The notes beneath the pieces are model-generated. The model saw nothing but the letters and a program-made list of their open reading frames with translations. It ran no database searches and was not told where the DNA came from. A stretch of 64,000 nt of DNA from a virus (Duplodnaviria; Caudoviricetes), in the IMG/VR virus record IMGVR_UViG_3300038345_000087, positions 32,001 through 96,000 of that record; one strand, given 5' to 3'. The position numbers and the translations under genes were made by a program. Position 1 is the first letter of the stretch, and the number at the start of each line of letters is the position of its first letter. Shown piece by piece: positions 8,688 through 52,378 of this stretch.

Positions 8688-8940
8688 AAAAAGTATGTTG
8701 ATAAAATCTATTAGATATATAGGATTCCTGAGACCTGACGTGAGTTGTGGCACTGGTTATTCAGAACCCGATAAGTTCCATGTGGTTTATGATACAGGGT
8801 TGGAAACTGATGTGTGGGTTGATATTTGGAATCTTCCAGAGGAATGTGTACGTAGTGCTTTTTTAGAGGATTGTATGATGCTTTTCATTCGCTACCCAAT
8901 AATCTTGATGAAGCATTTGAAATGTATAAGCAAGCAATAA
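8677..8940 (+). CDS. hypothetical protein
   Basis: 87-aa ORF coupled to cassette 4 through the same GAATATGA junction; no TRD-like tail. Confidence 0.5.
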   Translation: MNCKKSMLIKSIRYIGFLRPDVSCGTGYSEPDKFHVVYDTGLETDVWVDIWNLPEECVRSAFLEDCMMLFIRYPIILMKHLKCISKQ

Positions 8941-14875: not shown

Positions 14876-17800
14876 ATGGATAAAAAGACCGAAGTTGTCA
14901 TCACATGTAATTCCAAGCAACCTGTCGCCGCTGTGCGTGCGATGGAAACGGAATTGAAAAAACTGCAAGGCACTTACCAGCAGCTCGTACAGGCTGGCAA
15001 GGCTGGAACAGAACGTGCTAAGACGATGGCGCACGAGATCAAGGAACTCTCTATTGCTATCAAAGAGGGAAAGGCGAACATGGATAAAATCGTGTCCGTT
15101 ACGAATAACCTTTCCCAATCTTCACTCTCTCAGTTGCAGCGTGCCCTTCGTCAGGTGAAGAAGGAAATGTCGCGTGTAAGTACGGATAGCCCGAAACTGG
15201 ATGATTTGCGTATGAAGTATAAGGCTATCACGGACCAGATTAAGATTCTGAGTGGTGAAATGCTGAATATAAAGAAGCATATTGGCAACCTCTCTGGAGT
15301 GACGGATTCTTGGCTTCAGAAAGCCGTCCAGCAACAGAAAGCCCTGGTGCAACAGACACGTCAGGGAACATCTGAGTATAACAAGCAGATGAGCGTGCTG
15401 TCTCAGCTCTCGACTGAACAGGCACGTCGCGCTGTATCTACCATATCATCGGGTACTGCCAGTGCAGAACAACTACGTTCTGCCCGTGCTGCCCTCGTTT
15501 CTCATCGTGATATGATAGGCTCTGGTGGTATTCAAGTACAGGGCAATCAGGCAACGGAAATAGCTAAAATCAATGAGGAACTGAAGAAGGCTGATGCACA
15601 ACTTGATACGATTGCTGGCAAGGAACAGAAATTGGTGTATTCAACACAGGAAATTGCAGATAAGGCGAATCAGATTATCATGGATCCCAAAAAGTTCACA
15701 CCAAAGGAGATTGAAACGGCTCTGACTAATGTGAACAATAAATTGAAGGAAATTCCACTCAATGACCCGTTCCGAAAGCAGCTAAAACAGTCTGCAACAC
15801 AGTTGAAGGCCATCCTCGATGGCGTGGATAAGGAACTTATCGACATCAAAAACTTGCTCCAACCGCAAAACCTCAAGAAAGCCTCTCTTGAACAGTTGAA
15901 GAATGCGGCTACTCAGTTGGAGAAGGAAATGGCGAAACTCAACCGTGATACACAAGAGTATATCAATAAGAAAAGCCAACTGGCTACCATTCGCGGGGAG
16001 ATAGATAAGGCTACGGGTTCTGTGCATAAACAATCGTCAGCATGGCAGACTACACTTCGCAATATGTCGGCATACTTTGGTGCCTTCCAACTGTTCTCTA
16101 TGGCTATCCAGAAGGTTCAGGCGTTTTTCCGTCTTAACCTCAAATTCTCGGATCAGTTGGCCGACATTCGTAAGGTGTCCGGCCTCGCTATGCAGGACAT
16201 CAATAACCTTGCTAATTCTCTTGCAAAACTTGATACTCGCACTACCATTCAGGAACTTAACGAGATTGCTTATGCGGGTGCCAAATTGGGTATGGGTAAG
16301 TATGGCACCGCCGGATTGGAGCAATTCGTTCGTGCGGCTAACCAGGTGAATGTGGCACTGAAAGAGGACTTGGGACAGGATGCACTCACGGCTCTCTCTA
16401 AGATTACGGAGGTCATGGGACTTATCCCGAAGATGGGCGTGGAGAAATCCATGCTGGCTGTAGGTTCTGCCATGTTCCAGTTGTCTGCCACATCTACGGC
16501 GACATCGAACAATATCGTAGAGTTCTCAAAACGTCTCACGGGTATGGCTCGTACAGCCGGTATCACCACGGATCAGCTGCTTGCACTTGGTTCTGCTTCT
16601 GATGCTATGTACCTCATGCCCGAAGTCGCCAGTACTGCATTTAATAAACTTATCACCTCTCTTCAGACGAAGCACAACCTCATTGAACAAGAACTTCAGA
16701 TTGAACCTGGTACCATCAACAACCTCTATTCTGCTGGCAAGACAATGGATGCCATCGTTCTCATCCTCGAAAAGATGAAGGCGAAGGGTAACATGAATGC
16801 CCTGCAAGGTGTGTTCAAAGACCTCGGTTCTGAAGGTGCTCGTCTCGTCAATGTCATGGTGACGATGAGCAAGAATGTAGATATGCTCAAAGATCACCTC
16901 GCTACATCTGAGGAAGCATTCTCAGAGGCGACGGCTGTCACTCAAGAGTATGCTATACAGCAAGAAACGGCTAATGCTCTGATGGAGCGTGCTTCAAATA
17001 TATGGGAAAAATCTTTTATCAATCCGAAGGGCGTAGATAATGTAAAGGAGTTAGCGCAACAATGGTATAACTTAACAAGGACTCTGACAGAATCTACATT
17101 TTTTATGGCACAGGCTAAGGCTGCTATTTGGCTTCTTATTAGTAGCATTAAAATTTTGATAGCATTACTTCCTGTGTTGATAGAGTTTTTCTTGTTTAGA
17201 GGAGCTTATGCTGCTATTATGGCCGTGGTTCGTGGTTTTGTCGCTCTTCGTACAGCAATTCAGGCGGCTACTGTGGCACAACATGGTTTGAATGCTGCTC
17301 AGAAGGCAAATCTATTTGGATTGATAGCGACCCTTATTGCTGCTGCTGTTAGTTGGTTTATCACGTATCGCGAAAAAGCAGAGGATGCAGCCGAAGCACA
17401 GCAAACCGTAAATCATGCTCTTGCTGATGCTCAAGCAGAGTATATGAAAACTAAAAAGAAACTTGACGATTATGTTAAGGCTCTTGATGATGCTAATATA
17501 TCTGAGGACACCCGTCAGAGATTGCTTCGTTCCTTTAATAAGGATTATAGGATTTATCTGGATAAGTTGGGTATAGAAGTCAATAGCGTAAATGATTTGA
17601 AAACGGCTTATGCCAAGTTGAATGATGAGATAAAGAAAAAGGCGTATTACGAACTGCGTGAAAGAACGCTCCAATCATACGTTGGTGATGCACAGACGGA
17701 ACAGGCTAACGCCATGATAGAGTTCCAGAAGGTGATGAAAAAGTATGGACTGGATGTTAATGCTGATTATGTGGTGAACAATCAGCATTTGGGTATGGTT

Positions 17801-20602
17801 GGAGCCACGCGGAAACTTTTAGAAGAACATGCTGGCGCAAAGTTCGTTGGTAGGTATAGTAATGGTACGGGTTATAAAGATAATGTTATCTATAGAAATG
17901 GCAATTATGCTCAGATAGCTAAAAGTTCGCCTTGGGTGGTTAATACTCCGTGGATGGATGAGGTGGAAGAGATTTCAACAGCAGTTAATAATATAATAGC
18001 TGCTTATCGCGATGTTCGCAGTAAAGAAAAAGAGGTACATGACGCATTTGATGGTTTGGTGGGTGATTGGGATGCAGATTTCAGATCTTTAACTGGTGAT
18101 GAACCGCCTGGATCACTTGATAACAACGCCCCTGACAAAGACGCTCTTCGTCGTGCCAAAGAAGAAGCTGCTCGCCAGAAGAAACAATGGCGTGATGATC
18201 TCAAAGAGGCTCAGGACCGCGCACGCGCCATCATTGATAACATCAAGAATTTCTACCAGCGTCAGATTAACGAGGTACTTCGTACTGCCAACGAACAGAA
18301 TTGGGACACCTCACTCACGGATGCTGCCGTCCGTGCCGTGGAAGGTCGCATGAACCTCGCCCTCTCCAATGCTCGCAAGGCGATTGCCGGTGTGCAAAAC
18401 GATTGGGGCACATTCAAGACGGAAATGGCCGCTGATATGCGGGAAATGGCGGATGAAACGGGTTATAATGAGTCTCAGCTGTTGTTGAACAGCATTCAAG
18501 AGGCTGATCCAGATGCCATCCGTAACCTGATTATGCAACTGTCCTCTAACCTCGAATTGCCTCAGAATGCAGCCATCGATGCCATCTGGAAGAATGCTTC
18601 GCACAATGAGACGAACATCGAGACAGCTGAACAGAAACGACGCAGGGAGGTACAGAAGCGACTCCTGGATGACAACTTCACTGGTAAGGTGGATAACGAA
18701 TACACTAATTCGATGGAAACTCTCGGTTTCTTCGACCTCTCTTCCGAACAGGCTAACACGTTGCTTGCGGGAGGGGAGGATGCTGAAGCCTTGCTCCAAC
18801 GTCGTGCTCAGGAAATAGGACAAGTGTTGCAACGTGCCCGTGAGACGAACTTGTTTGCAATCCAAGATAAATACGGATTGATGGAGGCTTTGTTTGGTAA
18901 GGATTGGCAGTCACAACCGACCGAATTGGCACATGTGCTTGAACTGACTGGCGATGACCTTCAAGTGTTCTATCGCGAACTGATTAAATACTCTGACTCT
19001 TATACTGAAGCCCTCAAACGCTCCCGTGAACGCCAGAAGAAAATCCTTGATGAGCAATGGATGAAAACTACCACATTCCATGCTAATGAGGATGCTCAGA
19101 AACAGACACAAATGCTTGCTTCTGGTGTGGGACAGTTTTCGGCGAATGTGCAACAGCAACAGGAGGCGGGCGAAAGCGTACCGCGTAAGGACACCTATGG
19201 CACGGCATCGTTTATCTCTTCGATGGGACATGACCCAGAGATAGATTCTTACCGTTTGAAGATGGAGGCTGCTGCTGCTTATTATGACTTCCTCAAAGCG
19301 CATCAAGCGGATGCTGAAACACTCCGTGACGCAGAACAGGCAATCCTTCAGTCAGAAATGGAGTATGCTAAATCGGTGGCAGAACAGATGAAGCAGCGCA
19401 TCAATGACATCTACGAACTTGCTGCTCCTATCGAGGACTTTGGTACAGAGGTGGGCGAAGCGTTCGCTACGATGACCGAGGATGCAGAAGAGGGACGTAA
19501 GGCCATGAAGAAGGCCATCGGCTCCATGATTAAAGCCTTTATGAAGCAGACCGTGGAAATGTCAAAGGAGTACATCAAGCGTCGCATGATGCAGAAGATG
19601 AACGACAAACTGACATCCAAGGCCATGAAGAAGTCTATCAAACTGGAGACTGGACTCGAACAGGATAAGCAAGATGCCGTTCTGGATGTGGCAAAGCAAG
19701 GCGGACAAGCTCGTACCTTCCTGAATGAAGAGGTGGAGGGCGATGTACTTCAGGCAAAGAAGGAAATCGGCAACGAGACTTTGATCACGCAACAGACACA
19801 GACGCAACAGGAGGTGCAGACCGAATCATCCAAGACTCAGGCGAACACCACAATGGGTATTGCCAGTGGTGCGTCTAAGATCATCGGCTCGCTTGGTTGG
19901 TGGGGCATTCCGCTTATCGCCGTTATCACTGCCTTGCTGAATGGCCTCCTGTCTTTTGCCATGAGCAAGGTGTCCTCGCTTTTTGGTGGAGGCAAGGAGG
20001 CTGGTGGCGATGAAGGTCCTAACGTCAAACTGGCTTCTGGTATGTTGACATACGACTCTGGTAACGTCCAAGCCTACGCGGGTGTTATCGATGGCAAGAC
20101 TTACCCCGTTGTGGGTTCCGACGGCAAGGTGTATGCAGCAAAGGATGGCGGCGAACTTTCTACGGGCCTTGTGAAAGACCCCATCACAACGCTCATCAAT
20201 GGTCAACCGGCTCTCGTAGCAGAAAAAGGCCCTGAAATGGTGATCGGTAGAGAAACAACAGCCGCAATGATGATGGCTCGGCCTGATATTATCGCTGAGA
20301 TAGTGAAGTTCGATAAGAACCGCTCTGGCCAAACGTACCGTGCTTACGATGCTGGTAATATCGCGGAACTGATAGCCAATGGTACTGTGCCAAACGGTTT
20401 ACCCGTTGGGGAAAATGGCCTCACTCCCGAAGATATTGCCTCTCTCCGTTCTTCTCTGGATGGCTTTGCCGCTGTCATGGCTCTTATACAGAAGAATGGC
20501 TTGCACGTCAACAAGTTTGGTCGCGGGTCTGTCACAGAGGCTTCCGCATCCGGCGCAAAATTCATGCGTCAGAACTCCGGCGATCGTCTTTGGCGTGGGT
20601 AA
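14876..20602 (+). CDS. Tail tape measure protein
   Basis: 1908 aa, helical and Ala/Gln-rich; TP901-type core (FSDQLADIRKVSGL...) and hydrophobic segments. Confidence 0.85.
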   Translation: MDKKTEVVITCNSKQPVAAVRAMETELKKLQGTYQQLVQAGKAGTERAKTMAHEIKELSIAIKEGKANMDKIVSVTNNLSQSSLSQLQRALRQVKKEMSRVSTDSPKLDDLRMKYKAITDQIKILSGEMLNIKKHIGNLSGVTDSWLQKAVQQQKALVQQTRQGTSEYNKQMSVLSQLSTEQARRAVSTISSGTASAEQLRSARAALVSHRDMIGSGGIQVQGNQATEIAKINEELKKADAQLDTIAGKEQKLVYSTQEIADKANQIIMDPKKFTPKEIETALTNVNNKLKEIPLNDPFRKQLKQSATQLKAILDGVDKELIDIKNLLQPQNLKKASLEQLKNAATQLEKEMAKLNRDTQEYINKKSQLATIRGEIDKATGSVHKQSSAWQTTLRNMSAYFGAFQLFSMAIQKVQAFFRLNLKFSDQLADIRKVSGLAMQDINNLANSLAKLDTRTTIQELNEIAYAGAKLGMGKYGTAGLEQFVRAANQVNVALKEDLGQDALTALSKITEVMGLIPKMGVEKSMLAVGSAMFQLSATSTATSNNIVEFSKRLTGMARTAGITTDQLLALGSASDAMYLMPEVASTAFNKLITSLQTKHNLIEQELQIEPGTINNLYSAGKTMDAIVLILEKMKAKGNMNALQGVFKDLGSEGARLVNVMVTMSKNVDMLKDHLATSEEAFSEATAVTQEYAIQQETANALMERASNIWEKSFINPKGVDNVKELAQQWYNLTRTLTESTFFMAQAKAAIWLLISSIKILIALLPVLIEFFLFRGAYAAIMAVVRGFVALRTAIQAATVAQHGLNAAQKANLFGLIATLIAAAVSWFITYREKAEDAAEAQQTVNHALADAQAEYMKTKKKLDDYVKALDDANISEDTRQRLLRSFNKDYRIYLDKLGIEVNSVNDLKTAYAKLNDEIKKKAYYELRERTLQSYVGDAQTEQANAMIEFQKVMKKYGLDVNADYVVNNQHLGMVGATRKLLEEHAGAKFVGRYSNGTGYKDNVIYRNGNYAQIAKSSPWVVNTPWMDEVEEISTAVNNIIAAYRDVRSKEKEVHDAFDGLVGDWDADFRSLTGDEPPGSLDNNAPDKDALRRAKEEAARQKKQWRDDLKEAQDRARAIIDNIKNFYQRQINEVLRTANEQNWDTSLTDAAVRAVEGRMNLALSNARKAIAGVQNDWGTFKTEMAADMREMADETGYNESQLLLNSIQEADPDAIRNLIMQLSSNLELPQNAAIDAIWKNASHNETNIETAEQKRRREVQKRLLDDNFTGKVDNEYTNSMETLGFFDLSSEQANTLLAGGEDAEALLQRRAQEIGQVLQRARETNLFAIQDKYGLMEALFGKDWQSQPTELAHVLELTGDDLQVFYRELIKYSDSYTEALKRSRERQKKILDEQWMKTTTFHANEDAQKQTQMLASGVGQFSANVQQQQEAGESVPRKDTYGTASFISSMGHDPEIDSYRLKMEAAAAYYDFLKAHQADAETLRDAEQAILQSEMEYAKSVAEQMKQRINDIYELAAPIEDFGTEVGEAFATMTEDAEEGRKAMKKAIGSMIKAFMKQTVEMSKEYIKRRMMQKMNDKLTSKAMKKSIKLETGLEQDKQDAVLDVAKQGGQARTFLNEEVEGDVLQAKKEIGNETLITQQTQTQQEVQTESSKTQANTTMGIASGASKIIGSLGWWGIPLIAVITALLNGLLSFAMSKVSSLFGGGKEAGGDEGPNVKLASGMLTYDSGNVQAYAGVIDGKTYPVVGSDGKVYAAKDGGELSTGLVKDPITTLINGQPALVAEKGPEMVIGRETTAAMMMARPDIIAEIVKFDKNRSGQTYRAYDAGNIAELIANGTVPNGLPVGENGLTPEDIASLRSSLDGFAAVMALIQKNGLHVNKFGRGSVTEASASGAKFMRQNSGDRLWRG

Positions 20603-20742: not shown

Positions 20743-21870
20743 ATGGCCGTACATATCAATCTTCACCTTCCGACTTCCTATAACCGCTGTTCTCTACCAG
20801 AACTGCGTGCTATCGCTGCTGTTATGAGTGACTGTGCCCTTCGTGCTTCCCGTTTCCATCCGTTTGACATGATGGAAGTGAAGGTGGCCGTGTTTCTCAG
20901 ACTGACAAACCTCGAAATAGTAGAACCGCTTAATCCACGTGTTCCTGTTGAGGAACAGTACTACGTTGTGCGCACGCTTCCCTATACTGTCAATGATGAA
21001 GAAAGAAGGTGGTTCCGTGTGTTTCGATGGCATCGCAACTTAAAAGCGTGGTGCCGTCGCCATATCCTCGGACATGATGATTCCTTTTCGCTGTATCTCT
21101 GGCAAATACACTCCTGGTTATCTTCATCTAAGAGTCGTGTGACGGGAAAGGTTACGCCTGGCCTTTTGGACTGGCTGGATGCCGACAACCCAGATTCGTT
21201 ACTTATATTCCCGTTATCTTCCATTCGTCGAAGTCACCGTGCCAGATGGTTTCCCTTCGGGTCTAAAGTTACTTTCGCTGGCCCCGCACCCCTGATGGAT
21301 GGATTTAGTTGGCAACGCTATCGCTTTGCTCAGGACTATATGCAGAATTATATCAACGCATCCAATCGCCTTCTCCAGTTGCAAAAGATGGGTAATCGCG
21401 CTTCTGCTGCCGACATCCTCCGCGCCTCCAAGAATCTTGACCTCGCAAAGGCTTTGTTCCTGGCTACCATTTTTTGTCGTCGCATCACTTATGTGGATGA
21501 AGAAACGGGGCGTACTAAGACGGATTATCGCTACCAATCTAACCAACATATAGACAATGCGCCATATTTCCGAAACTTCCCTGATACGGACTGGCAACTG
21601 GTCTTGTTGTGGTGGCAGGGTATGATGCACTACTTACAAAAGACGTACCCTAAAGTTTTTAAGAAACAAAAGGTATCGAAGGATCAGAAGGCGGCTAATC
21701 CGCTTGAACTCTATACTCGCACAACGGCCACAATGGAGAAATACATATCTGCCACGGCTTCTGAGGTGGATCACGAACCTTATACGACAATTCTTCAACA
21801 TATCGAAGATATCATCAAGAATAACGAGGAAATGGAACGCATCAATGCTTCCATGAAACGTAAATCATAA
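20743..21870 (+). CDS. hypothetical protein
   Basis: About 375-aa ORF after the late-type promoter. Confidence 0.6.
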   Translation: MAVHINLHLPTSYNRCSLPELRAIAAVMSDCALRASRFHPFDMMEVKVAVFLRLTNLEIVEPLNPRVPVEEQYYVVRTLPYTVNDEERRWFRVFRWHRNLKAWCRRHILGHDDSFSLYLWQIHSWLSSSKSRVTGKVTPGLLDWLDADNPDSLLIFPLSSIRRSHRARWFPFGSKVTFAGPAPLMDGFSWQRYRFAQDYMQNYINASNRLLQLQKMGNRASAADILRASKNLDLAKALFLATIFCRRITYVDEETGRTKTDYRYQSNQHIDNAPYFRNFPDTDWQLVLLWWQGMMHYLQKTYPKVFKKQKVSKDQKAANPLELYTRTTATMEKYISATASEVDHEPYTTILQHIEDIIKNNEEMERINASMKRKS

Positions 21871-21898
21871 ATTCATCAAATCATCAATTCATTAAATT

Positions 21899-22171
21899 AT
21901 GAATACAGAAAAACTTTATTCTCGCGTCCTCGAAATTCTTATGGCGCGTTATGACTCTCCATCCATGCCTCCGGCTTCGGAGATAACGATTGACAGTTCT
22001 CTTTCTGAGGATTTGGGTATGGAATCGCTCGACATCGTAGATTTCATCATCGGCTGTGAGACGGCTTTCGACATCAAATTGGATATGGCCGACGCGAAGA
22101 ATGTTCATACCATTCGTGATCTTATTGACTTTATTCTGGAAGTGAAGCCTTCGTTATGCAACCAACTTTAA
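21899..22171 (+). CDS. Acyl carrier protein
   Basis: 90 aa, acidic; EDLGMESLDIVDF contains the phosphopantetheine Ser; FDIKL..., TIRDLIDFI. Confidence 0.85.
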   Translation: MNTEKLYSRVLEILMARYDSPSMPPASEITIDSSLSEDLGMESLDIVDFIIGCETAFDIKLDMADAKNVHTIRDLIDFILEVKPSLCNQL

Positions 22172-23526
22172 TCACAGGCATTGGCATCTGGTCCTGCATA
22201 GGGGAGAATCGTCAGATTGTGGAGCAATCATTACGTGCCGGACGTTCTGGCATTGGTACGGATTATCGGCGCACGGAATATGGCTATCAGTCGCCGCTCA
22301 CGGGGGTTGTCCCAGAACCAGACCTGTCACATGAACCACTGCGTAATAGCCAACGCCGTTGCTTGGCTGAACAATCAGCTTATGCTTACTTTGCTGTGAA
22401 GGAGGCTATTGCTCAAGCGGGTCTCACACCTGAACAACTACGCCATGCCGCGCTTATCGTGAGTAATGACAGTTGTGCCGCTGCTGCCTCCGAAACGGAG
22501 GAGGTAATGGCCTTGCACCATGATAGCCGACGTTTGGGTGGTTTCCATGTGTTCAAGTCACTCAATAGTACAACGTCGATGTCATTGGCTTCGATCTTCG
22601 GAATTGGCGGATTGTCCCTCTCCCTCTCTGCCGCTTGTGCTGGTGGTGGCCATGCTATTGGTCTTGCACACTCTCTTATCAATGCCGGCGTGATAGATAC
22701 GGCTATTGTTGTGGGTGCTCAGGAGGTGGGGCTTCATTCCTACACCGCCTTTGATGCACTTGGCGTATTCAGTAAAAACGTGGAAAATCCGTCGGGGGCT
22801 TCACGCCCATTTGATGTGCATCGTGACGGTCTTGTGCCTTCTGGTGGTGCTGCGTGTATCATATTGGAGTCCCGTGCGTCTTTCTCGTTTCGCCTTCCCC
22901 AAGTGGATTCTCCCTGTGCGCTCGCTGCTGTTGTTGGCTATGGTTTCTCGACATCGCCCAATGTGGTATCTCCATCTTCAGAAAGCATCCTCGCGGCTAT
23001 GAAGATGGCTATGGGATGTCACCACTTATCTGTCGCGGCTCACCTCTCTACAATCTTTCCGCACGCAACATCTACACGCGATGGGGACCGTGCCGAAGCA
23101 GAAGCCATCACATCACTTCTTCAGTCCGTTCCAGATAATCCTCTCAGCATCTATGCTTGTCTTGGAAATCAGCTTGTAGATCCTCATGCCTCATATAGCA
23201 TGAATCCGTCAGAGATAGATGGTGTTTCTTCGTGTGGTGGTTTCATAAAAAAACCGTTAGTGATTCCAACTAAGGCTCTAACAGGCCATGAATGTTGGAT
23301 GGCTGGTGTATCTCAGATAGTGTATGCTATAATCCAGTCGCAAGGCGGCTTCGCTACCCCGCACCCCAATTTATCAGAGAAAGACTTGGCAGCATCATCC
23401 TTGCACATTCCTACGGATTTGCAACAGTATGACCATACGCTCTTCCTTTGTAACGCATTTGGATTCGGAGGCACGAACTCTTCCCTCTTGCTTGCTGCAC
23501 CATCCATGATACCATCTTTGGAATAG
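22156..23526 (+). CDS. Beta-ketoacyl-ACP synthase (FabB/FabF family)
   Basis: ITGIGIWS, catalytic SAACAGG, SRPFDVHRDGLV, HATST, KALTGH, NAFGFGGTN. Confidence 0.9.
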   Translation: MQPTLITGIGIWSCIGENRQIVEQSLRAGRSGIGTDYRRTEYGYQSPLTGVVPEPDLSHEPLRNSQRRCLAEQSAYAYFAVKEAIAQAGLTPEQLRHAALIVSNDSCAAAASETEEVMALHHDSRRLGGFHVFKSLNSTTSMSLASIFGIGGLSLSLSAACAGGGHAIGLAHSLINAGVIDTAIVVGAQEVGLHSYTAFDALGVFSKNVENPSGASRPFDVHRDGLVPSGGAACIILESRASFSFRLPQVDSPCALAAVVGYGFSTSPNVVSPSSESILAAMKMAMGCHHLSVAAHLSTIFPHATSTRDGDRAEAEAITSLLQSVPDNPLSIYACLGNQLVDPHASYSMNPSEIDGVSSCGGFIKKPLVIPTKALTGHECWMAGVSQIVYAIIQSQGGFATPHPNLSEKDLAASSLHIPTDLQQYDHTLFLCNAFGFGGTNSSLLLAAPSMIPSLE

Positions 23527-29933: not shown

Positions 29934-30228
29934 GTGGTATGATATGATAGCCGATGGCATCAAGAAAGAGGAATACCGCCGCATGACTCCTTATTGGATA
30001 AAGCGTTTGGTACAAAATGCCACGATTGAAGGTGATACCAATGTCATTACTTTTAAGCCATACACACATGTCTGCTTCCATCGGGCTTATACCTCTACAA
30101 CGATGTTATTTGAACTGGATGGATTGGGCGTAGGTTATGGAAAGCCGGAATGGGGAGCGAAAGACGAACGTACTTTCATCTTACGACTCGGAAAACAAGA
30201 ACATTGTATTTGGAAATACATAAAATGA
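29896..30228 (+). CDS. ASCH/PUA-like protein
   Basis: LHLVLRYKWYDMIADGIKKEEYR. Confidence 0.6.
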   Translation: MQIKVLHLVLRYKWYDMIADGIKKEEYRRMTPYWIKRLVQNATIEGDTNVITFKPYTHVCFHRAYTSTTMLFELDGLGVGYGKPEWGAKDERTFILRLGKQEHCIWKYIK

Positions 30229-30635
30229 AACAACCACGTATCTACATATCAGGTCCTATCACAGGACACAGTGACTATAAAGAACGCTTTGCTGAAGCAG
30301 CTGATACGTTACGTAAGGCTGGATGGGTGAAACCTGTCAATCCTACGACGATGTTCGGCTGGTTCCAACCTGTTTTCAACAGACTACCTTATCGGCTTCA
30401 GGTGTTCATTGATTGTATGGTGCTCTCTACGTGTAAAGGCATCTATTTGATGTCGGATTACAATTTGTCTCGTGGTGCCCGTCTTGAAAAGGCTGTGGCA
30501 GAGTTCTTGCAACTATCCATATATGAGCAAAGGCTTAATAATCCTTTCTCGCCTCTAATCAAGTCTTTTGTTGATATGGGAGAGCAAATGTCACGATTTA
30601 GTTCAATCTGTTGCGGTGCATTCGCAACCAAATAA
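30225..30635 (+). CDS. DUF4406-like (nucleoside deoxyribosyltransferase fold) protein
   Basis: IYISGPITG ... SRGARLEKAVA. Confidence 0.7.
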   Translation: MKQPRIYISGPITGHSDYKERFAEAADTLRKAGWVKPVNPTTMFGWFQPVFNRLPYRLQVFIDCMVLSTCKGIYLMSDYNLSRGARLEKAVAEFLQLSIYEQRLNNPFSPLIKSFVDMGEQMSRFSSICCGAFATK

Positions 30636-30657: not shown

Positions 30658-31164
30658 ATGGGTAAACAAAATCTTTCCATCATGGACCGCATCAAGACTT
30701 TCGAGGATGCTGTCAAGGAATTGGGTGAAAAGCACCCCGCCGTATGTGAGTACAATGCCATCGTTTCCGCCGGTCTTGAAACGTCTATGTCTCCTGACAT
30801 TCTCGCATACTTCAAACTTCGTATCATCACCGCCGCACTCAATGATGGCTGGGAGCCTCAGTTTACGGTGGGTGAATATCGCTATTGGCCGTGGTTCTGG
30901 CTCTATACACAAGAGGAAGTGGATGCTATGACCGAAGCGGAGCGTTCTGAGCTGCTGTACGTCGGGGGTTACGCGTCTGACGGTGCGCTATGCGGTATTT
31001 CGTATGCGAACTCGATTTACGCTTTCTCGCTCTCGGACGCGGTCATCGGTGCTCGTCTGGCCTTCAAATCTCAGGAACTCGCGAAGTACGCTGGTCGCCA
31101 GTTCATAGAACTGTGGTCTGATTTTTCGTTCAAACCTGTTGACGGGCATGGCAAAGAAGAATAA
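30658..31164 (+). CDS. Remote DGR target protein (168 aa)
   Basis: Contains VR2, which matches the TR at 50633-50743. Confidence 0.85.
   Translation: MGKQNLSIMDRIKTFEDAVKELGEKHPAVCEYNAIVSAGLETSMSPDILAYFKLRIITAALNDGWEPQFTVGEYRYWPWFWLYTQEEVDAMTEAERSELLYVGGYASDGALCGISYANSIYAFSLSDAVIGARLAFKSQELAKYAGRQFIELWSDFSFKPVDGHGKEE
30949..31059 (+). repeat. DGR variable repeat VR2
   Basis: 111 bp; 14 mismatches to the TR, all at TR adenines. Confidence 0.93.
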
Positions 31165-31408
31165 CAATAAGCCGCTTGACCAGAAGGCAATTCTCTTACG
31201 AGAAATATCAGAGGTTTTCAAACGCCATCAGGCAGATCCTAATATGTCTGTTGAGGTTTTGGGAGAAATGATGATGCACGTGTTCGTCGCGATGCAAACT
31301 TTCACTCCTGATGACATCACTCCTCATATCCTGGCCTTCTTTGACACCATGAAGGATAAAGCCTCAGAGGTGTTATCACAAGTTCTGGCGGATAGAAACA
31401 AGAATTGA
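31139..31408 (+). CDS. hypothetical protein
   Basis: Overlapping ORF in the operon. Confidence 0.5.
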   Translation: MTGMAKKNNNKPLDQKAILLREISEVFKRHQADPNMSVEVLGEMMMHVFVAMQTFTPDDITPHILAFFDTMKDKASEVLSQVLADRNKN

Positions 31409-33665: not shown

Positions 33666-34115
33666 ATGAATTTAGATGAAATGGCCCATAAGTACATTGG
33701 GCTGCTGGAAAACAAATCTGGCGTATTTAATGAAGGCGACATGGAAACATGTTACGTTACTGGAGCACAACAGGCTTCTGAATTACAGGAAGGACAATCT
33801 GGCAATTTCGGACAGGCTATTGGTTCACTGAAGTTCGGAAAACTTGTTCGTCGTGCCGGATGGAATGGAAAGGGAATGTTTCTCTTTATGCGTCCTTTCG
33901 ATGTTTTGTCTGACAGCTTCATTGTTGATACTGTGAAGTCTCTTCCACACAACTTTAAGGAATGGGTAAAGAACCATCCTAATGAGCGTAAGGAACGCTT
34001 TTTCGCTCAGTATATTTGTATGAAAGCTGCCGACGGTTCCGTTGTCAATGGATGGCTTGCTTCTCAGACGGACATGCTGGCTGACGATTGGGAACTGGTA
34101 AACCCTGAAGAATAG
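33666..34115 (+). CDS. DUF2829 / Tad2-like protein
   Basis: FGQAIGSLKFGKLVRRAGWNGKGMFL ... GWLASQTDMLADDW. Confidence 0.7.
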   Translation: MNLDEMAHKYIGLLENKSGVFNEGDMETCYVTGAQQASELQEGQSGNFGQAIGSLKFGKLVRRAGWNGKGMFLFMRPFDVLSDSFIVDTVKSLPHNFKEWVKNHPNERKERFFAQYICMKAADGSVVNGWLASQTDMLADDWELVNPEE

Positions 34116-34322: not shown

Positions 34323-34619
34323 TTGATTATGGCTGGCCCTAAATGCGACATATTTGAGTATATCAGAGATACCGTTCATATCTACGATAAGATGACAGAG
34401 ACCAACAAGAATCTCCGTTATCTTTTCAAAGACTATGAAGAGAAGGTTGTTCCCGTCAAAGAGTGTATTCGTAAAGTCATGGCTGCTCAGAAGAAAGATG
34501 TCCTTCCTGCTACCATTGACTTGATGACAGCGGCAATGGAAAAAGATAATGCAGTTCATGCCATGTGGTTTATGTCAGCTGCCGTAGATATCTGTAATGA
34601 AAAGCAAATCAAACAATGA
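34323..34619 (+). CDS. hypothetical protein
   Basis: 98-aa ORF in the operon. Confidence 0.5.
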   Translation: MIMAGPKCDIFEYIRDTVHIYDKMTETNKNLRYLFKDYEEKVVPVKECIRKVMAAQKKDVLPATIDLMTAAMEKDNAVHAMWFMSAAVDICNEKQIKQ

Positions 34620-34669
34620 AAAAATTACATCGAATAATCCTATTCCGTGGCTACAATGCCAAAAACAAA
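34613..34669 (+). repeat. 57-bp direct repeat, copy 1
   Basis: Identical to 36770-36826 (start of the YopX gene). Confidence 0.9.
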
Positions 34670-34818
34670 CCGCACCTCGTACATGTCGGCTCAGGCTTGG
34701 AGCGCGGCTGTCCCTTCCTCGTCGCTGATGATACAAACAAACATATCGTCACCTGTAACTTTATGCCAGACTTCTTCCCTGGCCTCGTTTATGACTCAAA
34801 ATAACCCTAACACTCCCT

Positions 34819-36769: not shown

Positions 36770-36826
36770 ACAATGAAAAAATTACATCGAATAATCCTAT
36801 TCCGTGGCTACAATGCCAAAAACAAA
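36770..36826 (+). repeat. 57-bp direct repeat, copy 2
   Basis: Identical to 34613-34669. Confidence 0.9.
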
Positions 36827-37225
36827 ACGTGGCTTCATGGCTACTATATCCAGAATCGGCTTGGTCATTTCGTTACTCCCAATGAGTTTGCACGAGGTAA
36901 AGATTGGGATGATTACGAAGTAGATCCTGATACTGTCGGACAGTTTACTGGTACATACGATAAAACGGGCGCGATGGTTTATGAAGGTGACATCGTGGAT
37001 GCCTGGAGTGCTGGCTCACATATTAGTCATGGAATTGTAAAATTTGCTTCTCCTCGTTTCTTCATTCTCGTCAATCATTCAGAGAAGGGGACACCTATTG
37101 ACTGTTGGAGTCTTGCACCAAGCCAGTTTGATGGTAACGATGAGCATTTGAAGGTAGTTGGCAATATCCATGATAACCCAGAACTCGTAAAAGCATATTT
37201 GGAATATCAAAAGCATCATGTATGA
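36773..37225 (+). CDS. YopX family protein
   Basis: ILFRG..., TVGQFTGTYDKTGAMVYEGDIV, VVGNIHDNPEL. Confidence 0.8.
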   Translation: MKKLHRIILFRGYNAKNKTWLHGYYIQNRLGHFVTPNEFARGKDWDDYEVDPDTVGQFTGTYDKTGAMVYEGDIVDAWSAGSHISHGIVKFASPRFFILVNHSEKGTPIDCWSLAPSQFDGNDEHLKVVGNIHDNPELVKAYLEYQKHHV

Positions 37226-38902: not shown

Positions 38903-38976
38903 TATATATATAATAAGGTATAAGGTATAGCTCATAGTTTTTGGTTATTGATTGATTAGTCTTTAAGGTTAGTGCG

Positions 38977-39008
38977 CCCGCTGGTTCCTTCCAGCGGGTT
39001 TCTTTTTT
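38977..39008 (+). terminator. Intrinsic terminator
   Basis: CCCGCTGG-TTCCTT-CCAGCGGG plus a T tract. Confidence 0.7.
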
Positions 39009-39100
39009 CCATCCCTAAACGCGAATCTATCAACCTTAAACCGTTCCTTTACCCCTTCCGCACATGCGTACCTTTGCGTCGTAATCAATTCGCATTTCGC

Positions 39101-40720
39101 ATGAACGGACTACTCGAAATACTCACTAATAAGGAATGGATGATCTCGCCAGAGTTCGTCCACGCCTCTCGCACGCTGTTCGAGCACAACTTGAACACGC
39201 ATACACCATTTGCAAAGGAGAAGAAACTTCCATACGCTGCCCGTGTGGGAGCTGCAACTTCTTCGGAAGAGTCCCAAGAGTCTGCTGGTTCTACCATCGA
39301 TATTCAGCAATATCAAGTTGGCGAGAATGGTAACGTCGTTGGCTATTATTATCAACTCGGTAATATGGAACAGCCGTTCGTCAACATCATGCCGGTGGAT
39401 GGCCCTATCACTCGAAACGGAGGTGCATGTTCTTATGGATCCGTGGAATTGCGTGATTGGCTCATTCGTGCAGCCAATGACCCAATGTGTCGCGGACATG
39501 TTTTCTATGTTGACACTCCTGGAGGTTCGGCATGGGCTAAAAACGATTTCCAACAGGCTATCGATTATGCACATTCCATGAACCAGAAGGTTATCGCCTT
39601 CATTGACGGACAATGTGCTTCCGCTGGTATGTACCTGGCTTCGCTCTGTGATGAAGTGTATTACATGCACCCGAAAAACCAATTTGGATGTATCGGTGTC
39701 ATGGCTGCATTCTACACAGAAAAGCCGGACACAACCAACAAGTTCACAAACGAGACCTATCGCGAATACTATGACCCTGAATCATACGAGAAGAATCAGT
39801 GGTACCGCGAGATTGAGAAGGATGGCGATGCCACCTTGCTCATTGAAGAACTGAAGGAGTTGGGTGTGGAGTTCCGCGCAGACGTACAAAAGGCTTTCCC
39901 TGCTGCTACCGATGAATATATCCACGGTAAGATTTTCGATGCTGAGAAAGTTGTTGGCATCCTCTGTGACGGACAATCCACCTTTGGCGAAGTCGTTGCA
40001 CGCGCTTTCGCACTTTACGATGGTGCAGAACCGGTCAAGCGCAAAGAGGCAACACCTCCCGCATCTTCTGAAGGTTCTTCTGATGGTGATGCCTCAGAAG
40101 GTAATGCTACAGTTCCCGCCGCTTCTGCGGAGGGTTCCAAAGAGAACAACCAAAATAGTAATAACCCCCAAAATCAAGAAAACATGAAGAAGTACGAATC
40201 TATCGCTGCTGCTTGTGGCGTGGACGAACTGGTCGTGACGGAGGAAGGTTCACACTTCGTTCCTGAAATGCTCGACCAACTCGAAGCATCACTGGCTACG
40301 GCTTCTACTGAAAAGCAGAACGCCGAAAAGCGTGCCGATGACCTTCAGGCTAAACTTGATGCTGCTGCAACCGAACAGACGGAGGCGGTCAACAACAAGG
40401 AGAAAGAACTGAACGAGGCACATGAGACTGTCGTAAACAACCTGAACACCGAGAAGGCTCAGTTGGAAAAAGATCTTGCTGACGCTCGCAAGGCGAAAGA
40501 GGATGCTGAGAAGGCTCTTGAAACAGCCAATCAGACCATCAAAGACCAGACGGCTCAGATTGAATCGCTCACTACCGCCGCCGCTGCAATGCACGACGAA
40601 GGCGCAAAGAACAACGGTCAAGGTGCTGCTGCCGAGGAGCCTAAGTGTGCCATGCCTGAGTATGACCACACAAAGTCTCCGCTCGAAAACGCTCGCATCC
40701 GTAAGGCTGCTGGCTTCTAA
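39101..40720 (+). CDS. S49-family prohead protease fused to a coiled-coil scaffold-like region
   Basis: VDTPGG, CASAGMYLAS, GCIGV; C-terminal coiled coil; precedes the capsid gene. Confidence 0.8.
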   Translation: MNGLLEILTNKEWMISPEFVHASRTLFEHNLNTHTPFAKEKKLPYAARVGAATSSEESQESAGSTIDIQQYQVGENGNVVGYYYQLGNMEQPFVNIMPVDGPITRNGGACSYGSVELRDWLIRAANDPMCRGHVFYVDTPGGSAWAKNDFQQAIDYAHSMNQKVIAFIDGQCASAGMYLASLCDEVYYMHPKNQFGCIGVMAAFYTEKPDTTNKFTNETYREYYDPESYEKNQWYREIEKDGDATLLIEELKELGVEFRADVQKAFPAATDEYIHGKIFDAEKVVGILCDGQSTFGEVVARAFALYDGAEPVKRKEATPPASSEGSSDGDASEGNATVPAASAEGSKENNQNSNNPQNQENMKKYESIAAACGVDELVVTEEGSHFVPEMLDQLEASLATASTEKQNAEKRADDLQAKLDAAATEQTEAVNNKEKELNEAHETVVNNLNTEKAQLEKDLADARKAKEDAEKALETANQTIKDQTAQIESLTTAAAAMHDEGAKNNGQGAAAEEPKCAMPEYDHTKSPLENARIRKAAGF

Positions 40721-49034: not shown

Positions 49035-50285
49035 ATGAAAAAAGCGAAAACTTCTCTTGCATCTGGTGAAGGCATAGCCAAAGTGTTGTGCTTGACCAGT
49101 CTTGACAACCTCTATGAGGCTACGCCGGAAGAGGTGAACAACAGCGCGATTCCATCCACTGTTGTAGGTGCGCTCACTTCCAGTCTCACGCTGGAACAGA
49201 ACTCTAATCCTGCCATCACGGTCAAAAACCGTGGAGCGGCTGAACTCTATCAGGGTCAAATGGGCGGATATGCCTTCTTCATCAAGGATGGCAAAGTCTA
49301 TGCGGCAAAACTGAATGGAGGTGATTGGACGAAGTTTGCCGATGGCACTCCTTTCACATCTGCTCTGGAGCAAGTGTGTGAAACAATGGTACATGTGCCT
49401 GACTGCCATTTCAAAGGCGAAGGTAAGACTCTCCACTTCGGCGGTCTCGTGCCTATCGATGGAGGCCATGTGTTTGAGTCTCCTCATTGGGTAGGTGCAT
49501 ACAAGATCTGGCTTGATGCCAACAACAAGGCACATTCGCGCCCCGACAAGACTCCTGCTCACTCTAAGACGATGAGCAACTTCTGGACTTATGCACAGAA
49601 CCTCGGTACTGAGTTTGGTCTGGCTAACTACCAGTTCCATTGTCTCATCAATGCGCTCTTCCAGGCACGCTATGGCAATCTCAATTCTCAGAGCGTCATC
49701 GGTGCTGGCTTCCAGACTTCTTCGTGGGAGGCTGCTCGTGATGTGCCAATGGGTCTTACAAAGGCTCTTGGTGATGGATCTGGTAGAGTGTTCTACACAG
49801 ATGGTACTATCGGCGACCAGTACCCCGTTAAACTCTTCGGCTTCGAGGATCTTTGGGGCAAACTCTGGGAGTTCCGTCCTGGCATCCGTTTCTACATGGA
49901 TGACACCGTGCGTAAGGCTGTTGTCTATTCAGGCAACAAAGTCAGCAACACGGCTACGGGTCGTGAGTTTGTGTGCAGCCTTACTACTCAGAGCGGTAGC
50001 GGCACTTATGCCAAGTCAATGGAACTTGGTGAGTGGTGGGACATGATAGCTCAGTCTGTCAATGGCTCTGACTCTACGTACTATTGCGATGGCTTCTGGT
50101 ACGCTACGACTGGAGAGCTGCTGGGCGTCGGGGGTCGCGCGGCTTACGGTGCGCTATGCGGGCTTTCGTCTGCGGGCTCGACTGGCGCTTTCTCGCGCTC
50201 GGCCTCGGACATCGGTGCTCGTCTGGCCTTCTACGGTGAGCCGGAAATCGTTAGCGGTGCGCAGCTGGTGGCCTTGACCGCCTGA
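49035..50285 (+). CDS. DGR target; putative receptor-binding tail protein (C-type lectin-like C-terminus)
   Basis: LFGFEDLWGKLWEF and a C-terminal VR ending IGARLAF, typical of CLec-fold DGR targets. Confidence 0.85.
   Translation: MKKAKTSLASGEGIAKVLCLTSLDNLYEATPEEVNNSAIPSTVVGALTSSLTLEQNSNPAITVKNRGAAELYQGQMGGYAFFIKDGKVYAAKLNGGDWTKFADGTPFTSALEQVCETMVHVPDCHFKGEGKTLHFGGLVPIDGGHVFESPHWVGAYKIWLDANNKAHSRPDKTPAHSKTMSNFWTYAQNLGTEFGLANYQFHCLINALFQARYGNLNSQSVIGAGFQTSSWEAARDVPMGLTKALGDGSGRVFYTDGTIGDQYPVKLFGFEDLWGKLWEFRPGIRFYMDDTVRKAVVYSGNKVSNTATGREFVCSLTTQSGSGTYAKSMELGEWWDMIAQSVNGSDSTYYCDGFWYATTGELLGVGGRAAYGALCGLSSAGSTGAFSRSASDIGARLAFYGEPEIVSGAQLVALTA
50115..50225 (+). repeat. DGR variable repeat VR1
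   Basis: 111 bp; 22 mismatches to the TR, 21 of them at TR adenines (one T>G). Confidence 0.95.
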
Positions 50286-50632
50286 TAAGGCGGGTCATTG
50301 GCCAGCCGGCTTGCGTGACCGCTCCTGCTGGCCATGACCGCCTCTGTCGCGTATTTAGCAACCACTAATAATAAGTAGTAATAACCATTTAACAAAATCA
50401 TCAGAGGACAGGCCGCAAGCGGCGACCATCCTAAAACAATTTGACATATTGAGACAACGACGTGGAACAGGTTGTACTTCCTGAACACACATAAACCAAT
50501 AAGCATCTTTGCCGAGGAAGAGTTGAATAGTTCGAGATTCTTCTACAGCTTTCTTGGAGAACAAAGGTGTAGGGACGGAGTGATTGGTGGTTCTCCACCG
50601 AGAATTTCATCCCGAAAAGGCAATAAATCGTG

Positions 50633-50743
50633 GAGCTGCTGAACGTCGGGGGTAACGCGAATAACGGTGCGCAATGCGGTATTTCGTATGCGAACTCGAA
50701 TAACGCTTTCTCGAACTCGAACACGAACATCGGTGCTCGTCTG
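50633..50743 (+). repeat. DGR template repeat (TR)
   Basis: Non-coding; 10 AAY codons and 27 adenines; aligns without gaps to VR1 and VR2; lies upstream of the RT. Confidence 0.95.
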
Positions 50744-51010
50744 AAATTTTACACTAATTATCCACTGTTTATCTCTACCGGCCTCGTGTAGGTCAACGGG
50801 GATGAGCACACGATTGAGCCTGACTCGATGGAAGGATATAGGGTGTGCAAAGCGGTTTTCCCGCTTTGACCTCCTATCCTGACAGAGCGAACACATAAAG
50901 GCGTAGGGTGTTATGAGTCCCCTCGCGCAAGTAAGCAAGGCAGTTGTACGCCTATACCGAAAGCCCGTGAGCCGAGAAGTGTAGAAGGCATAACCGTTTC
51001 CGTAATCAAT

Positions 51011-52378
51011 TTGTCTCGTAAAAGAAGAACGATGGCTGAAGAGTTGGCATACAAAAGAAAGGCAAGCCGTCGCGGTAAGAACCGCAAGGTGCGCATCGCC
51101 CAAGTCTATGACATGGGCAACCTACGTATGGCAGACCGTGAGGCACGAAAAGGTAAGGATGCACATAAGGGTGTTCGCATCTTTGACCGTAATCCAGAAA
51201 AGAACCTTCAGACCTTGCAGGACCAACTTCGCACAGCCACATACCATACTTCGCCAGGACATGAATGTGTGCGCCATTGTCCCTGTGGAAAAGACAGACT
51301 GCTGCATAAGCTGCCGTACTATCCAGACCACGTAGAGAACCATGCGCTCATGCAGATCATCATGCCGATAATGATGCGGGCATATTACTATGACTCGTCG
51401 GCATCTATAAAAGGTAAAGGTATGCACTTCGCAGCACAACGCACGGAGCGTTATATCGATGCACATAAGTATGCCGGTCGTATCTATTATGCCAAACTGG
51501 ACTTCGTGAAGTTCTATCACAACATCAATCAGAAGAAGATTAACCATGTCCTGAGTCGAAAGTTCGGCGATAAAGGCATACGTTATCTGATTTGGGAGAT
51601 TGTTTCAGCATGTGAGGAGGGATTAGGCATAGGATTGTTCCCGATTCAACCGATGGCGAATTTCTACACTTGTGCGCTATGCCGTCTGTTGATGGCTCTC
51701 TTCGACGTATGGGTAGAGATTTATTGTGATGATATGGTCATCATGGGTCTTGATAAGAAAGAAGTATGGCGTGCCGTGAATTTCGTCAGGAAGTATGCTG
51801 AAGAGGTGATGGAACAGCCGTTGCATGACAATATCGGTGTGCAGATTATCGACGAACATCACGGACTCGATTTTGTCGGGTATCAGTTCTTCTTTAATCA
51901 TACGTTGCTCAGAAAACGTATGAAAGCCAAGTTCAAACAGAAGATGCACCGTCTGAAAGACCCTATGCGTCGCTATCAGGCTGCTACTTCATATAAGGGA
52001 TGGCTCATGCACTGCAACGGATTCAACCTCTGGTGTAAGGTGATGCACATGAAATCGTTTAAGGATCTCCAAGTTCCGAAGTTTGAGAAGAAGGATGCCG
52101 ATGGTAAGCGTATGCTTGAAGGTACGAAGGTGTCAGCCTCCATGCTCTGCGGACGTGAAGTTGTCTTTACGGATGTGGAGTTGGGCGTGAAGTCTAAGTA
52201 TAAGAAGAACGCGGCCATCGTACAGGTGGAGGATAACGGACAAAAGTTCAAGTTCTTTACGTGTAACCAGAAACTCATTCAGACGCTCGAATATATCAAT
52301 ACCCATGACGGCTTCCCGTTCACGGGCACCATCGTTCGTGCCAACAACGCGGGATTGCCTGACTACGAGATTACATAA
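51011..52378 (+). CDS. DGR reverse transcriptase with fused C-terminal domain
   Basis: KLPYYPDHVENHA, IKGKGMH, KLDFVKFYHNI, GLGIGLFPIQ, YCDD (51722-51733), GLDFVGY; about 109 extra aa from 52049. Confidence 0.92.
   Translation: MSRKRRTMAEELAYKRKASRRGKNRKVRIAQVYDMGNLRMADREARKGKDAHKGVRIFDRNPEKNLQTLQDQLRTATYHTSPGHECVRHCPCGKDRLLHKLPYYPDHVENHALMQIIMPIMMRAYYYDSSASIKGKGMHFAAQRTERYIDAHKYAGRIYYAKLDFVKFYHNINQKKINHVLSRKFGDKGIRYLIWEIVSACEEGLGIGLFPIQPMANFYTCALCRLLMALFDVWVEIYCDDMVIMGLDKKEVWRAVNFVRKYAEEVMEQPLHDNIGVQIIDEHHGLDFVGYQFFFNHTLLRKRMKAKFKQKMHRLKDPMRRYQAATSYKGWLMHCNGFNLWCKVMHMKSFKDLQVPKFEKKDADGKRMLEGTKVSASMLCGREVVFTDVELGVKSKYKKNAAIVQVEDNGQKFKFFTCNQKLIQTLEYINTHDGFPFTGTIVRANNAGLPDYEIT

Follow-up and report, generated by a model that had tools for sequence, protein, structure and literature searches.

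The 64,000-nucleotide (nt) stretch analyzed here, which we call the window, covers bases 32001 to 96000 of the IMG/VR record IMGVR_UViG_3300038345_000087, a gut phage genome (Duplodnaviria; Caudoviricetes) of 106,650 bp that CheckV rates as complete. It carries a diversity-generating retroelement (DGR); our subject is a small gene at 30658 to 31164 that is a second, remote target of this element. A repeat search of the window returned a three-copy family, D1 (30949 to 31065, 50115 to 50231, and 50633 to 50749), and the whole 106,650-bp record holds exactly these three copies. They correspond to two variable repeats (VRs) and one template repeat (TR). The features of the system, including a reverse transcriptase (RT) gene and a candidate initiation of mutagenic homing (IMH) sequence, are as follows.

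30658 to 31164, plus strand: remote DGR target gene, an open reading frame (ORF) of 168 amino acids (aa) in the phrog_11581 family
30949 to 31059, plus strand: VR2, codons 98 to 134 of the 168-aa gene
31044 to 31065, plus strand: IMH-like 3' end of VR2, CATCGGTGCTCGTCTG plus GCCTTC
49035 to 50285, plus strand: proximal DGR target gene, 416 aa, matching phrog_5302 "tail protein" (E = 2.2e-40)
50115 to 50225, plus strand: VR1, inside the 416-aa tail-protein gene
50633 to 50743, plus strand: TR, in the noncoding interval that separates the VR1 gene from the RT gene, with no long plus-strand ORF across it
51011 to 52378, plus strand: DGR RT, 455 aa, matching phrog_1423 (E = 7.3e-67), with a YCDD motif (...EIYCDDMVIMG...)

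Over the 111 nt of ungapped alignment, VR2 and the TR disagree at 14 positions, and all 14 are TR adenines, which would occur by chance with a probability of 9.5e-11 (hypergeometric). An earlier reading of the DNA, made from the letters alone and referred to below as the original prediction, had described this gapless match with its 14 adenine-confined mismatches and a target about 20 kb from the TR; recomputation returned the same alignment (P of about 1e-10) and a distance between VR2 and the TR of 19.7 kb, and every coordinate and count in that reading proved correct. VR1 differs from the TR at 22 positions of its own 111-nt ungapped alignment, 21 of them at A and 1 at T. We assigned the template to the copy at 50633 to 50743 because it is the adenine-rich one (27 A in 111 nt) and because the mismatches of the VRs sit on its adenines (all 14 in VR2 and 21 of the 22 in VR1). 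The substitutions in VR1 are different from those in VR2; therefore, each repeat has been rewritten independently. Nearly all TR adenines (26/27) occupy the first or second codon position in the frames of both targets.

The RT ORF starts 268 nt past the end of the TR, and its score against PF00078 (RVT_1), 23.6 bits, is under the Pfam cut-off. Neither the interval from the VR1 gene to the TR nor that from the TR to the RT gene (window 50286 to 51010) contains a plus-strand ORF of at least 60 aa, and the gap between VR1 and the TR is likewise short, about 90 to 180 nt, in the Bacteroides phages BI-TP1 and Versailles. The accessory protein Avd gave no PF05635 match at an E value of 1 or less in the 106.6-kb genome, where a divergent accessory protein is possible. 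Among relatives, the 416-aa tail target is hypervariable in its VR only.

To ask whether VR2 varies in the way a DGR target should, we turned to related genomes. At the DNA level, six were compared, namely the window and the loci L018, L097, L099, L100, and L101. Their VR2 sequences hold 28 variable columns: 26 of the 27 sites where the TR has A vary, compared with 2 of the 84 other sites, an adenine bias with a P value of about 6e-22. The absence of A-specific variation in relatives was the outcome that the original prediction had named as telling against it; the cross-genome comparison found such variation instead. At the protein level, the 168-aa product has about 1,200 homolog clusters at 90% identity, and the 12 closest homologs (86 to 92% identical; 13 proteins with that of the window) are near-invariant except at residues 101 to 131. 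Of the codons that vary outside the VR, 11 show synonymous changes only and 7 alter the amino acid; of those inside it, 16 alter the amino acid and none is limited to synonymous changes. Within the VR, certain G, A, C, and S positions, which we take to be structural, are invariant. Because the variation in VR2 is adenine specific and the gene is conserved elsewhere, these alignments indicate that VR2 is a genuine, currently active remote DGR target. The same variation supports the earlier proposal that one TR and one RT serve both a tail-module protein and a small protein of the accessory block.

Three further observations concern the alleles themselves. In one homolog (P0012), a stretch of the VR is read in another frame before the original frame resumes, and one locus (L018:3001-3507) has a 1-nt gap inside VR2; these slips may be real retrohoming indels or chimeric assemblies of mixed VR variants. 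An identical allele of VR2 (protein P0004) is present in two assemblies (L097 and L098; S002 and S003) of one subject series, with 10 contigs in total; therefore, a given VR2 variant can persist and is not subject to constant turnover.

We examined four other Bacteroidota phages, and in three of them (BI-TP1, Versailles, and G001) the homolog of the target is likewise a remote, adenine-mutated target in a nonstructural block. A tblastn search found them in the Bacteroides phages LoVEphage, BI-TP1, PV4-TP1, BT-TP2, and Versailles, and the LoVEphage and BI-TP1 proteins are 45 to 47% identical to that of the window over 93% of its length (47% for BI-TP1). The BI-TP1 homolog carries a VR whose mismatches to a TR tens of kilobases away fall on adenines in 14 of 14 cases, and its neighbors include methyltransferases, phosphoadenosine phosphosulfate (PAPS) reductase, and a radical SAM protein. 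In Versailles, the homolog shows 15 of 16 mismatches at adenines relative to a TR 43 kb away and lies near genes for SbcC, a RecT-like protein, NinB, and a replisome organizer. A fourth case is G001, a 96-kb relative, in which 14 of the 15 mismatches between VR and TR are at adenines. From these mismatch patterns and positions, phrog_11581 is, as far as sequence can tell, a conserved remote DGR target in the nonstructural blocks of several phage lineages (the window, BI-TP1, Versailles, and G001). When 24.5 kb of the window was compared with GenBank phages by megablast, no match was returned.

The gene in G001 also bears on function. Among the closest relatives outside the clade of the window (60 to 64% identity), several carry, within a single ORF, a PF11195 (Tad2-like) domain fused N-terminally to the target domain; among them are the clusters P0113, P0024, P0063, and similar ones, the IMG/VR loci L019 to L024 (for example, L022:2605-3501) and L026, and the G001 gene. 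The fused domain scores 31 to 42 bits against PF11195, for which the cut-off is 25. The fused gene occupies the same syntenic slot as the target of the window, after a DUF4406 gene and before an overlapping 86-aa ORF; thus, the gene of the window is a Tad2-less ortholog of the fusions. Other longer members (P0147, P0157, P0177, P0211, P0212, and others) have N-terminal extensions of a different kind, in which we found no Pfam domains. We found no literature linking Tad2 or DUF2829 to DGRs and none on the virion proteomics or expression of family members from Versailles or LoVEphage.

Some relatives show other arrangements. In one (G005:7044-10204, L106), two target paralogs stand in tandem (7765 to 8241 and 8260 to 8733), each with a VR of its own, and neither VR is the template. 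A search for a TR and an RT came up empty in this 62.9-kb record, possibly a fragment. The gene after these paralogs is full of SATV(E/K)A(C/Y) repeats. In another relative (G007), the RT lies at the contig end.

We next consider the protein. The 168-aa product matches phrog_11581, a family of unknown function, over residues 3 to 159 (E = 5.8e-53); it is acidic (pI 4.7), has a mass of 19 kDa, and shows neither a signal peptide nor a transmembrane segment, with a maximum 19-residue hydropathy of 1.0 and a charged N terminus. A profile search gathered 2,960 clusters at 50% identity; each of the top 150 is a small protein, between 114 and 362 aa in length. The VR is followed by 34 residues. Against phrog_5302, the family of the tail target, the protein matches across the VR only: neither BLASTP nor hhalign found scaffold homology beyond it, and the profile-profile alignment is confined to 38 VR columns. 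Therefore, one VR cassette sits on two unrelated scaffolds, and the earlier description of a protein with 34 residues after the VR and no evident similarity to the tail target outside it agrees with BLASTP, hhalign, and the ORF itself.

The original prediction had also raised a minimal C-type lectin (CLec) fold as something to look for. Two AlphaFold2 (AF2) models were made. The one from a diverse 112-sequence alignment reached a mean predicted local distance difference test (pLDDT) score of 79 and a predicted template modeling (pTM) score of 0.74; in it, 91 residues score above 90, helices predominate, and the VR (residues 103 to 129) forms a low-confidence loop with pLDDT below 50. This structure check yielded a confident helical scaffold but no CLec or other fold assignment. 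With the model as query, Foldseek against the PDB (E > 7) and VIA-align against 48,161 chains (best Z of 4.1) were uninformative; a PDB sequence profile search with the family gave no match, Pfam gave no CLec-type match over 112 family members, an ESM Atlas search gave nothing informative, and BFVD held only uncharacterized family members from gut phages. A TetR_C_34 match to the target (E = 0.004) was below the cut-off and was taken as chance. The scaffold is unrelated to that of the tail target and matched no recognizable known fold. With the VR itself not modeled, these searches speak neither for nor against a CLec fold, and the protein might carry its VR on a scaffold of non-CLec type.

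Just past the 3' limit of the homology, GCCTTC stands in both VRs and AAATTT in the TR, the distinction that the original prediction had likened to IMH and its TR counterpart, IMH*. Analogous differences occur at the same boundary in BI-TP1 (TTGC in the VRs and ATAC in the TR) and Versailles (GTGCC and TTACC), and G001 shows the same kind of difference between VR and TR; together, these boundary sequences fit the IMH/IMH* distinction.

The small hairpin noted downstream of VR2 fared differently.

31099 to 31113, plus strand: hairpin CAGTTC-ATA-GAACTG with a 6-bp stem and a 3-nt loop, 40 nt past VR2, within the codons for QFIEL

Although the hairpin is present as described, it does not behave as a conserved functional element. 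Over 83 homolog loci, all six pairs are kept only in the close relatives and BI-TP1, while the main group of 63 loci keeps two of six. We therefore rejected it as a DGR target-recognition element, since its pairing is not conserved and its stem consists of the Q-F and E-L codons, and we read it as a by-product of a conserved coding motif, Q-F-x-E-L-W. A different structure lies about 50 nt past VR1, where a GC-rich extended hairpin (window 50262 to 50312) runs across the stop codon of the VR1 gene, GGTGGCCTTGACCGCC-TGATAA-GGCGGGTCATTGGCCAGC. The DNA fold energy over 100 nt is -30.9 kcal/mol after VR1 and about -11 kcal/mol after VR2. The hairpin after VR1 may be a target-recognition cruciform for VR1 or an element that stabilizes the transcript.

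The target belongs to a codirectional, tightly packed block between the tape-measure gene (14876 to 20602) and the head-protease gene (38972 to 40720). In order, the block contains genes for primase (24943), ThyX (25974), a radical SAM protein (29115), DUF4406 (30150), the target (30658), the 86-aa ORF, YopX (31727), an AcrIIA7/Tad2 homolog (33666 to 34115), and a DNA methyltransferase (36180), and this order is preserved in close relatives. The original prediction had placed the target among small accessory genes, and these annotations identify the surroundings as a block of nucleotide-metabolism, replication, and antidefense genes. The neighbors most relevant to the target are as follows.

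30150 to 30635, plus strand: DUF4406, nucleoside 2-deoxyribosyltransferase-like (PF14359, E = 2.6e-16; phrog_355), 22 nt before the ATG of the target and syntenic in relatives
31148 to 31408, plus strand: conserved 86-aa ORF with a start codon (ATG) that overlaps the target at its 3' end by 17 nt, a called gene in relatives
33666 to 34115, plus strand: AcrIIA7/Tad2-family (DUF2829) homolog, 149 aa (PF11195, E = 3.4e-22), 2.5 kb downstream of the target

The 22-nt gap and the 17-nt overlap amount to operon-like packing. Compared with solved structures, the 149-aa protein is close to AcrIIA7, HgmTad2, and SptTad2; it matches AcrIIA7 (PDB 9kzr, E = 1.9e-43), 8kbi (E = 3e-38), and SptTad2 (E = 1.4e-28), and by this similarity its product is likely an anti-CRISPR or anti-Thoeris sponge.

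Other features of the region were recorded in passing. In this phage lineage, the tape-measure gene is followed immediately by genes for an acyl-carrier protein (PF00550) and a ketosynthase (PF00109/PF02801) (window about 21870 to 23526; L097 1233 to 2863). A 46-nt repeat family, D3, has five copies (11095, 20684, 46824, 54864, and 62291) upstream of gene blocks, with the form TTTGTTCCG...N...TATCTTTGC; in appearance, it is a promoter of the Bacteroidota type (TTTG / TAnnTTTG) that recurs before genes of one temporal class, and one copy precedes the block that begins just past the tape-measure gene. A 60-nt direct repeat of 98% identity (34613 to 34672 and 36770 to 36829) covers the starts of two ORFs, the second of which (36773 to 37225) is YopX-like (phrog_98), while the first, of 62 aa, is possibly a truncated duplicate. 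Downstream of the DGR, the direct repeats D5, D6, and D8 (55725 to 58684), spaced about 720 to 1,500 nt apart, lie inside one or more large genes, which suggests a modular, repeat-built fiber or adhesin.

Taken together, these data suggest the following model. The TR (50633 to 50743) would presumably be transcribed and copied by the adjacent RT (51011 to 52378) with adenine-specific errors, and the cDNA would then replace either VR1, which lies in the tail-module protein gene 0.5 kb upstream, or VR2, at a distance of 19.7 kb; the two VRs share the IMH-like 3' end that is absent from the TR. In the small gene, about 13 codons (AAY-type in the TR) would be rewritten in a 37-residue loop carried on a conserved, mostly alpha-helical, acidic, soluble 19-kDa scaffold. 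The protein would not be a part of the virion but would be made from the replication, nucleotide-metabolism, and antidefense operon as an intracellular diversifiable binder, one that recognizes, blocks, or sequesters a fast-varying factor of the host (or of a competing phage), probably in phage-host conflict. The intracellular location and the binder role are suggested by the surroundings of the gene in four lineages, by the absence of features of structural proteins, by the orthologs fused to a Tad2-like domain, and by the AcrIIA7/Tad2 gene nearby. Orthologs always lie in such blocks, and in the sister clade the gene in this slot carries a Tad2-like domain, from a family of immune-signal sponges; a counterdefense role inside the cell is thus plausible. 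We give the model as a whole, an active remote DGR target that encodes an intracellular diversifiable binder engaged in phage-host conflict, a little better than an even chance; for the part that concerns the action of the protein inside the cell as such a binder, we put the chance at roughly one half. The original prediction of a probably intracellular protein that binds host defense factors is strengthened circumstantially by the solubility of the protein, its operon, the AcrIIA7/Tad2 gene at 2.5 kb, and the fusion, and stays a plausible interpretation.

Several points weigh against this model. The localization is argued from gene context and from a missing signal peptide, and phage virion proteins lack signal peptides too. 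The same TR-encoded loop serves the tail protein, so the class of ligand could be a surface glycan, and the modeled VR loop, at pLDDT below 50, lends no structural support to a binding surface. PADLOC returned nothing for the target, the Tad2-like fusion, and the small neighbors, nor did Pfam for the target of the window and its small neighbors. As for the fusion, the match of the fused domain to solved SptTad2 is marginal (E = 0.013), as of a distant DUF2829 member; the domain has no BLAST similarity to the AcrIIA7-like gene of the window, and PF11195 was not found in the 168-aa protein of the window.

Three other explanations were considered. The first, which we regard as unlikely, takes the small protein for an adhesin, either associated with the virion or released (for example, a decoration, tail-accessory, or mucus- or glycan-binding protein), that is encoded outside the structural module and diversified, like the tail target, for adsorption or breadth of host range. 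Nearly all characterized phage DGR targets are receptor-binding proteins, Mtd of BPP-1 among them, and the VR encodes the same peptide here as in the tail protein; yet no similarity to structural proteins extends outside the VR, and the "tail protein" label of the Versailles homolog probably derives from VR-only similarity to phrog_5302. The accessory block does sit between the tape-measure and head-protease genes, but the gene is found among replication, recombination, DNA-modification, or antidefense genes in four lineages and forms a tight operon with DUF4406 and small ORFs. The distant second target of the Bacuni phages resembles a fimbrial tip, whereas the fusion partner in the present family is Tad2-like and not a fiber or baseplate domain.

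A second explanation, less probable again in our judgment, places the role in the lysogen: the prophage would express a diversifiable sensor or exclusion factor against superinfecting phages, like the antigen sensors of bacterial DGRs. Relatives that carry the family (LoVEphage, BI-TP1, and PV4-TP1) are temperate, and the identical P0004 protein in two samples of one subject series agrees with a stable allele; however, the gene lies in a lytic-type operon for replication and nucleotide metabolism and not beside a repressor or integrase. Bacterial DGRs have been linked to defense and sensing, but no effector domain (NTPase, nuclease, TIR, etc.) is fused or adjacent to the target here, and the known fusion partner comes from an antidefense rather than a defense family. 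The third explanation is a neutral passenger: a VR cassette with its IMH would have entered an accessory gene, where the activity of the DGR mutates it incidentally and without selection for the diversity. This draws on the modularity of the cassette (two unrelated scaffolds) and on the indels and frame slips inside the VR in some assemblies (P0012 and L018), but is very improbable for a family that is large and old (about 1,200 clusters at 90% and 2,960 at 50%), keeps an intact ORF with a conserved scaffold (11 synonymous-only versus 7 changing codons) and invariant VR residues, and is targeted remotely in no fewer than four diverged lineages of phages.

Returning to the intracellular binder, a broader proposal can be put forward, although we hold it only tentatively and consider it doubtful in its full extent: phrog_11581 proteins may be widespread DGR-diversified counterdefense factors that act inside the cell in gut Bacteroidota phages, the fusions being the ancestral or fully armed form and the gene of the window a stand-alone recognition module beside a separate AcrIIA7/Tad2 homolog. 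In the fusions, a sponge domain would be joined to an adaptable recognition domain, and hypermutation would keep the binder matched to fast-evolving immune proteins or signals.

DGRs are nearly always discussed as host-range devices that act on receptor-binding proteins. That several abundant lineages of gut phages conserve a nonstructural second target implies that programmed hypermutation has a further use, plausibly within the infected cell. What our analysis contributes is a clean cross-genome demonstration of active VR2 diversification, a VR cassette on a scaffold that is unrelated to the tail target and has no recognizable fold, and a functional handle in the orthologous Tad2-like fusion and the neighboring AcrIIA7/Tad2 gene. 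If the counterdefense interpretation is true, the present DGR would be the first with an antidefense protein as a demonstrated target. Cultured relatives (BI-TP1, PV4-TP1, Versailles, and induced LoVEphage) make the question directly testable. The idea of a nonstructural DGR target is itself already in print (PMC8008677, PMC12629997): the novelty that the original prediction had implied for a distal nonstructural second target is not supported, and the window adds a further lineage, not a new concept.

Compared with the DGR of Bordetella phage BPP-1 (mtd-avd-TR-brt), the present system has the same adenine-specific relation of TR and VR, the same IMH versus IMH* difference at the 3' boundary, and AAY codons in the TR. 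BPP-1, in contrast, has a single adjacent target, the tail-fiber tip protein Mtd with its solved CLec fold, together with Avd and a required GC-rich hairpin after the IMH, whereas the phage studied here has no Avd by PF05635, no conserved hairpin at VR2, and a second target 19.7 kb away on a different scaffold. Neither Avd, though common, nor a hairpin downstream of the VR is universal among DGRs. The relation to Tad2/AcrIIA7 (DUF2829) proteins is through the syntenic orthologs of the sister clade, which carry PF11195 above threshold, and through the homolog 2.5 kb downstream in the window; unlike those proteins, the 168-aa product lacks DUF2829, and the sponge activity of the fused domain is putative.

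Distant targets have been described in other phages. Roux et al. (2021) noted that their survey was unable to detect remote targets, and a 2026 survey states that it encountered no DGR that diversifies an antidefense protein. The Bacuni phages (PMC8143477) and the Toutatisvirus/tentaclin phages (PMC10743442; bioRxiv 10.1101/2024.10.15.618418) each use a single TR for one nearby and one distant target; the second Bacuni target is fimbrial-tip-like, and the Toutatis target lies 17.5 kb upstream of the TR. The second targets of both groups, fimbrial-tip-like or DUF6273 C-lec proteins, are read as receptor binders and are unrelated in sequence to phrog_11581.

The closest published parallels come from Bacteroidota phages. 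A 2025 study in Nature (PMC12629997) reported four prophage species with a second VR near counterdefense genes such as a DNA methyltransferase, describing the layout only, without characterization of the target family, its fold, or its fusion partners. Benler et al. (2021; Microbiome 9:78, PMC8008677) described the Quimbyvirus DGR with two targets, one adjacent to the tail genes and one nonstructural, both with adenine-specific variation, and located the second in a "defence-related island" with methyltransferases; they name the Quimbyvirus target a C-type lectin protein, a fold that is unconfirmed for the 168-aa protein here. Quimbyvirus (PMC8008677) and LoVEphage have each been reported to be about 95% identical to the Bacteroides dorei CP011531.1 prophage, and because both match this prophage, we infer that the LoVEphage-type homolog is the published Quimbyvirus target (ORF 80/84, OMAC01000147.1). 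The LoVEphage-type homolog of BI-TP1, which we checked as a remote target, falls in the same PHROG as the target of the window. The distal targets of both studies (PMC8008677, PMC12629997) apparently belong to the same protein family as the one described here. The present phage differs from Quimbyvirus and LoVEphage in genome size (106.6 kb versus about 71 to 75 kb) and from Quimbyvirus in the strand of the target (the same as that of the cassette here and opposite there), in its RT (a single ORF here and three overlapping frames there), and in its neighbors (DUF4406, radical SAM, YopX, and the AcrIIA7/Tad2 homolog), and its protein is the minimal, 168-aa form. It shares with Quimbyvirus and LoVEphage the overall plan of one DGR that serves a tail-side target and a distant small target near methyltransferase or defense genes.

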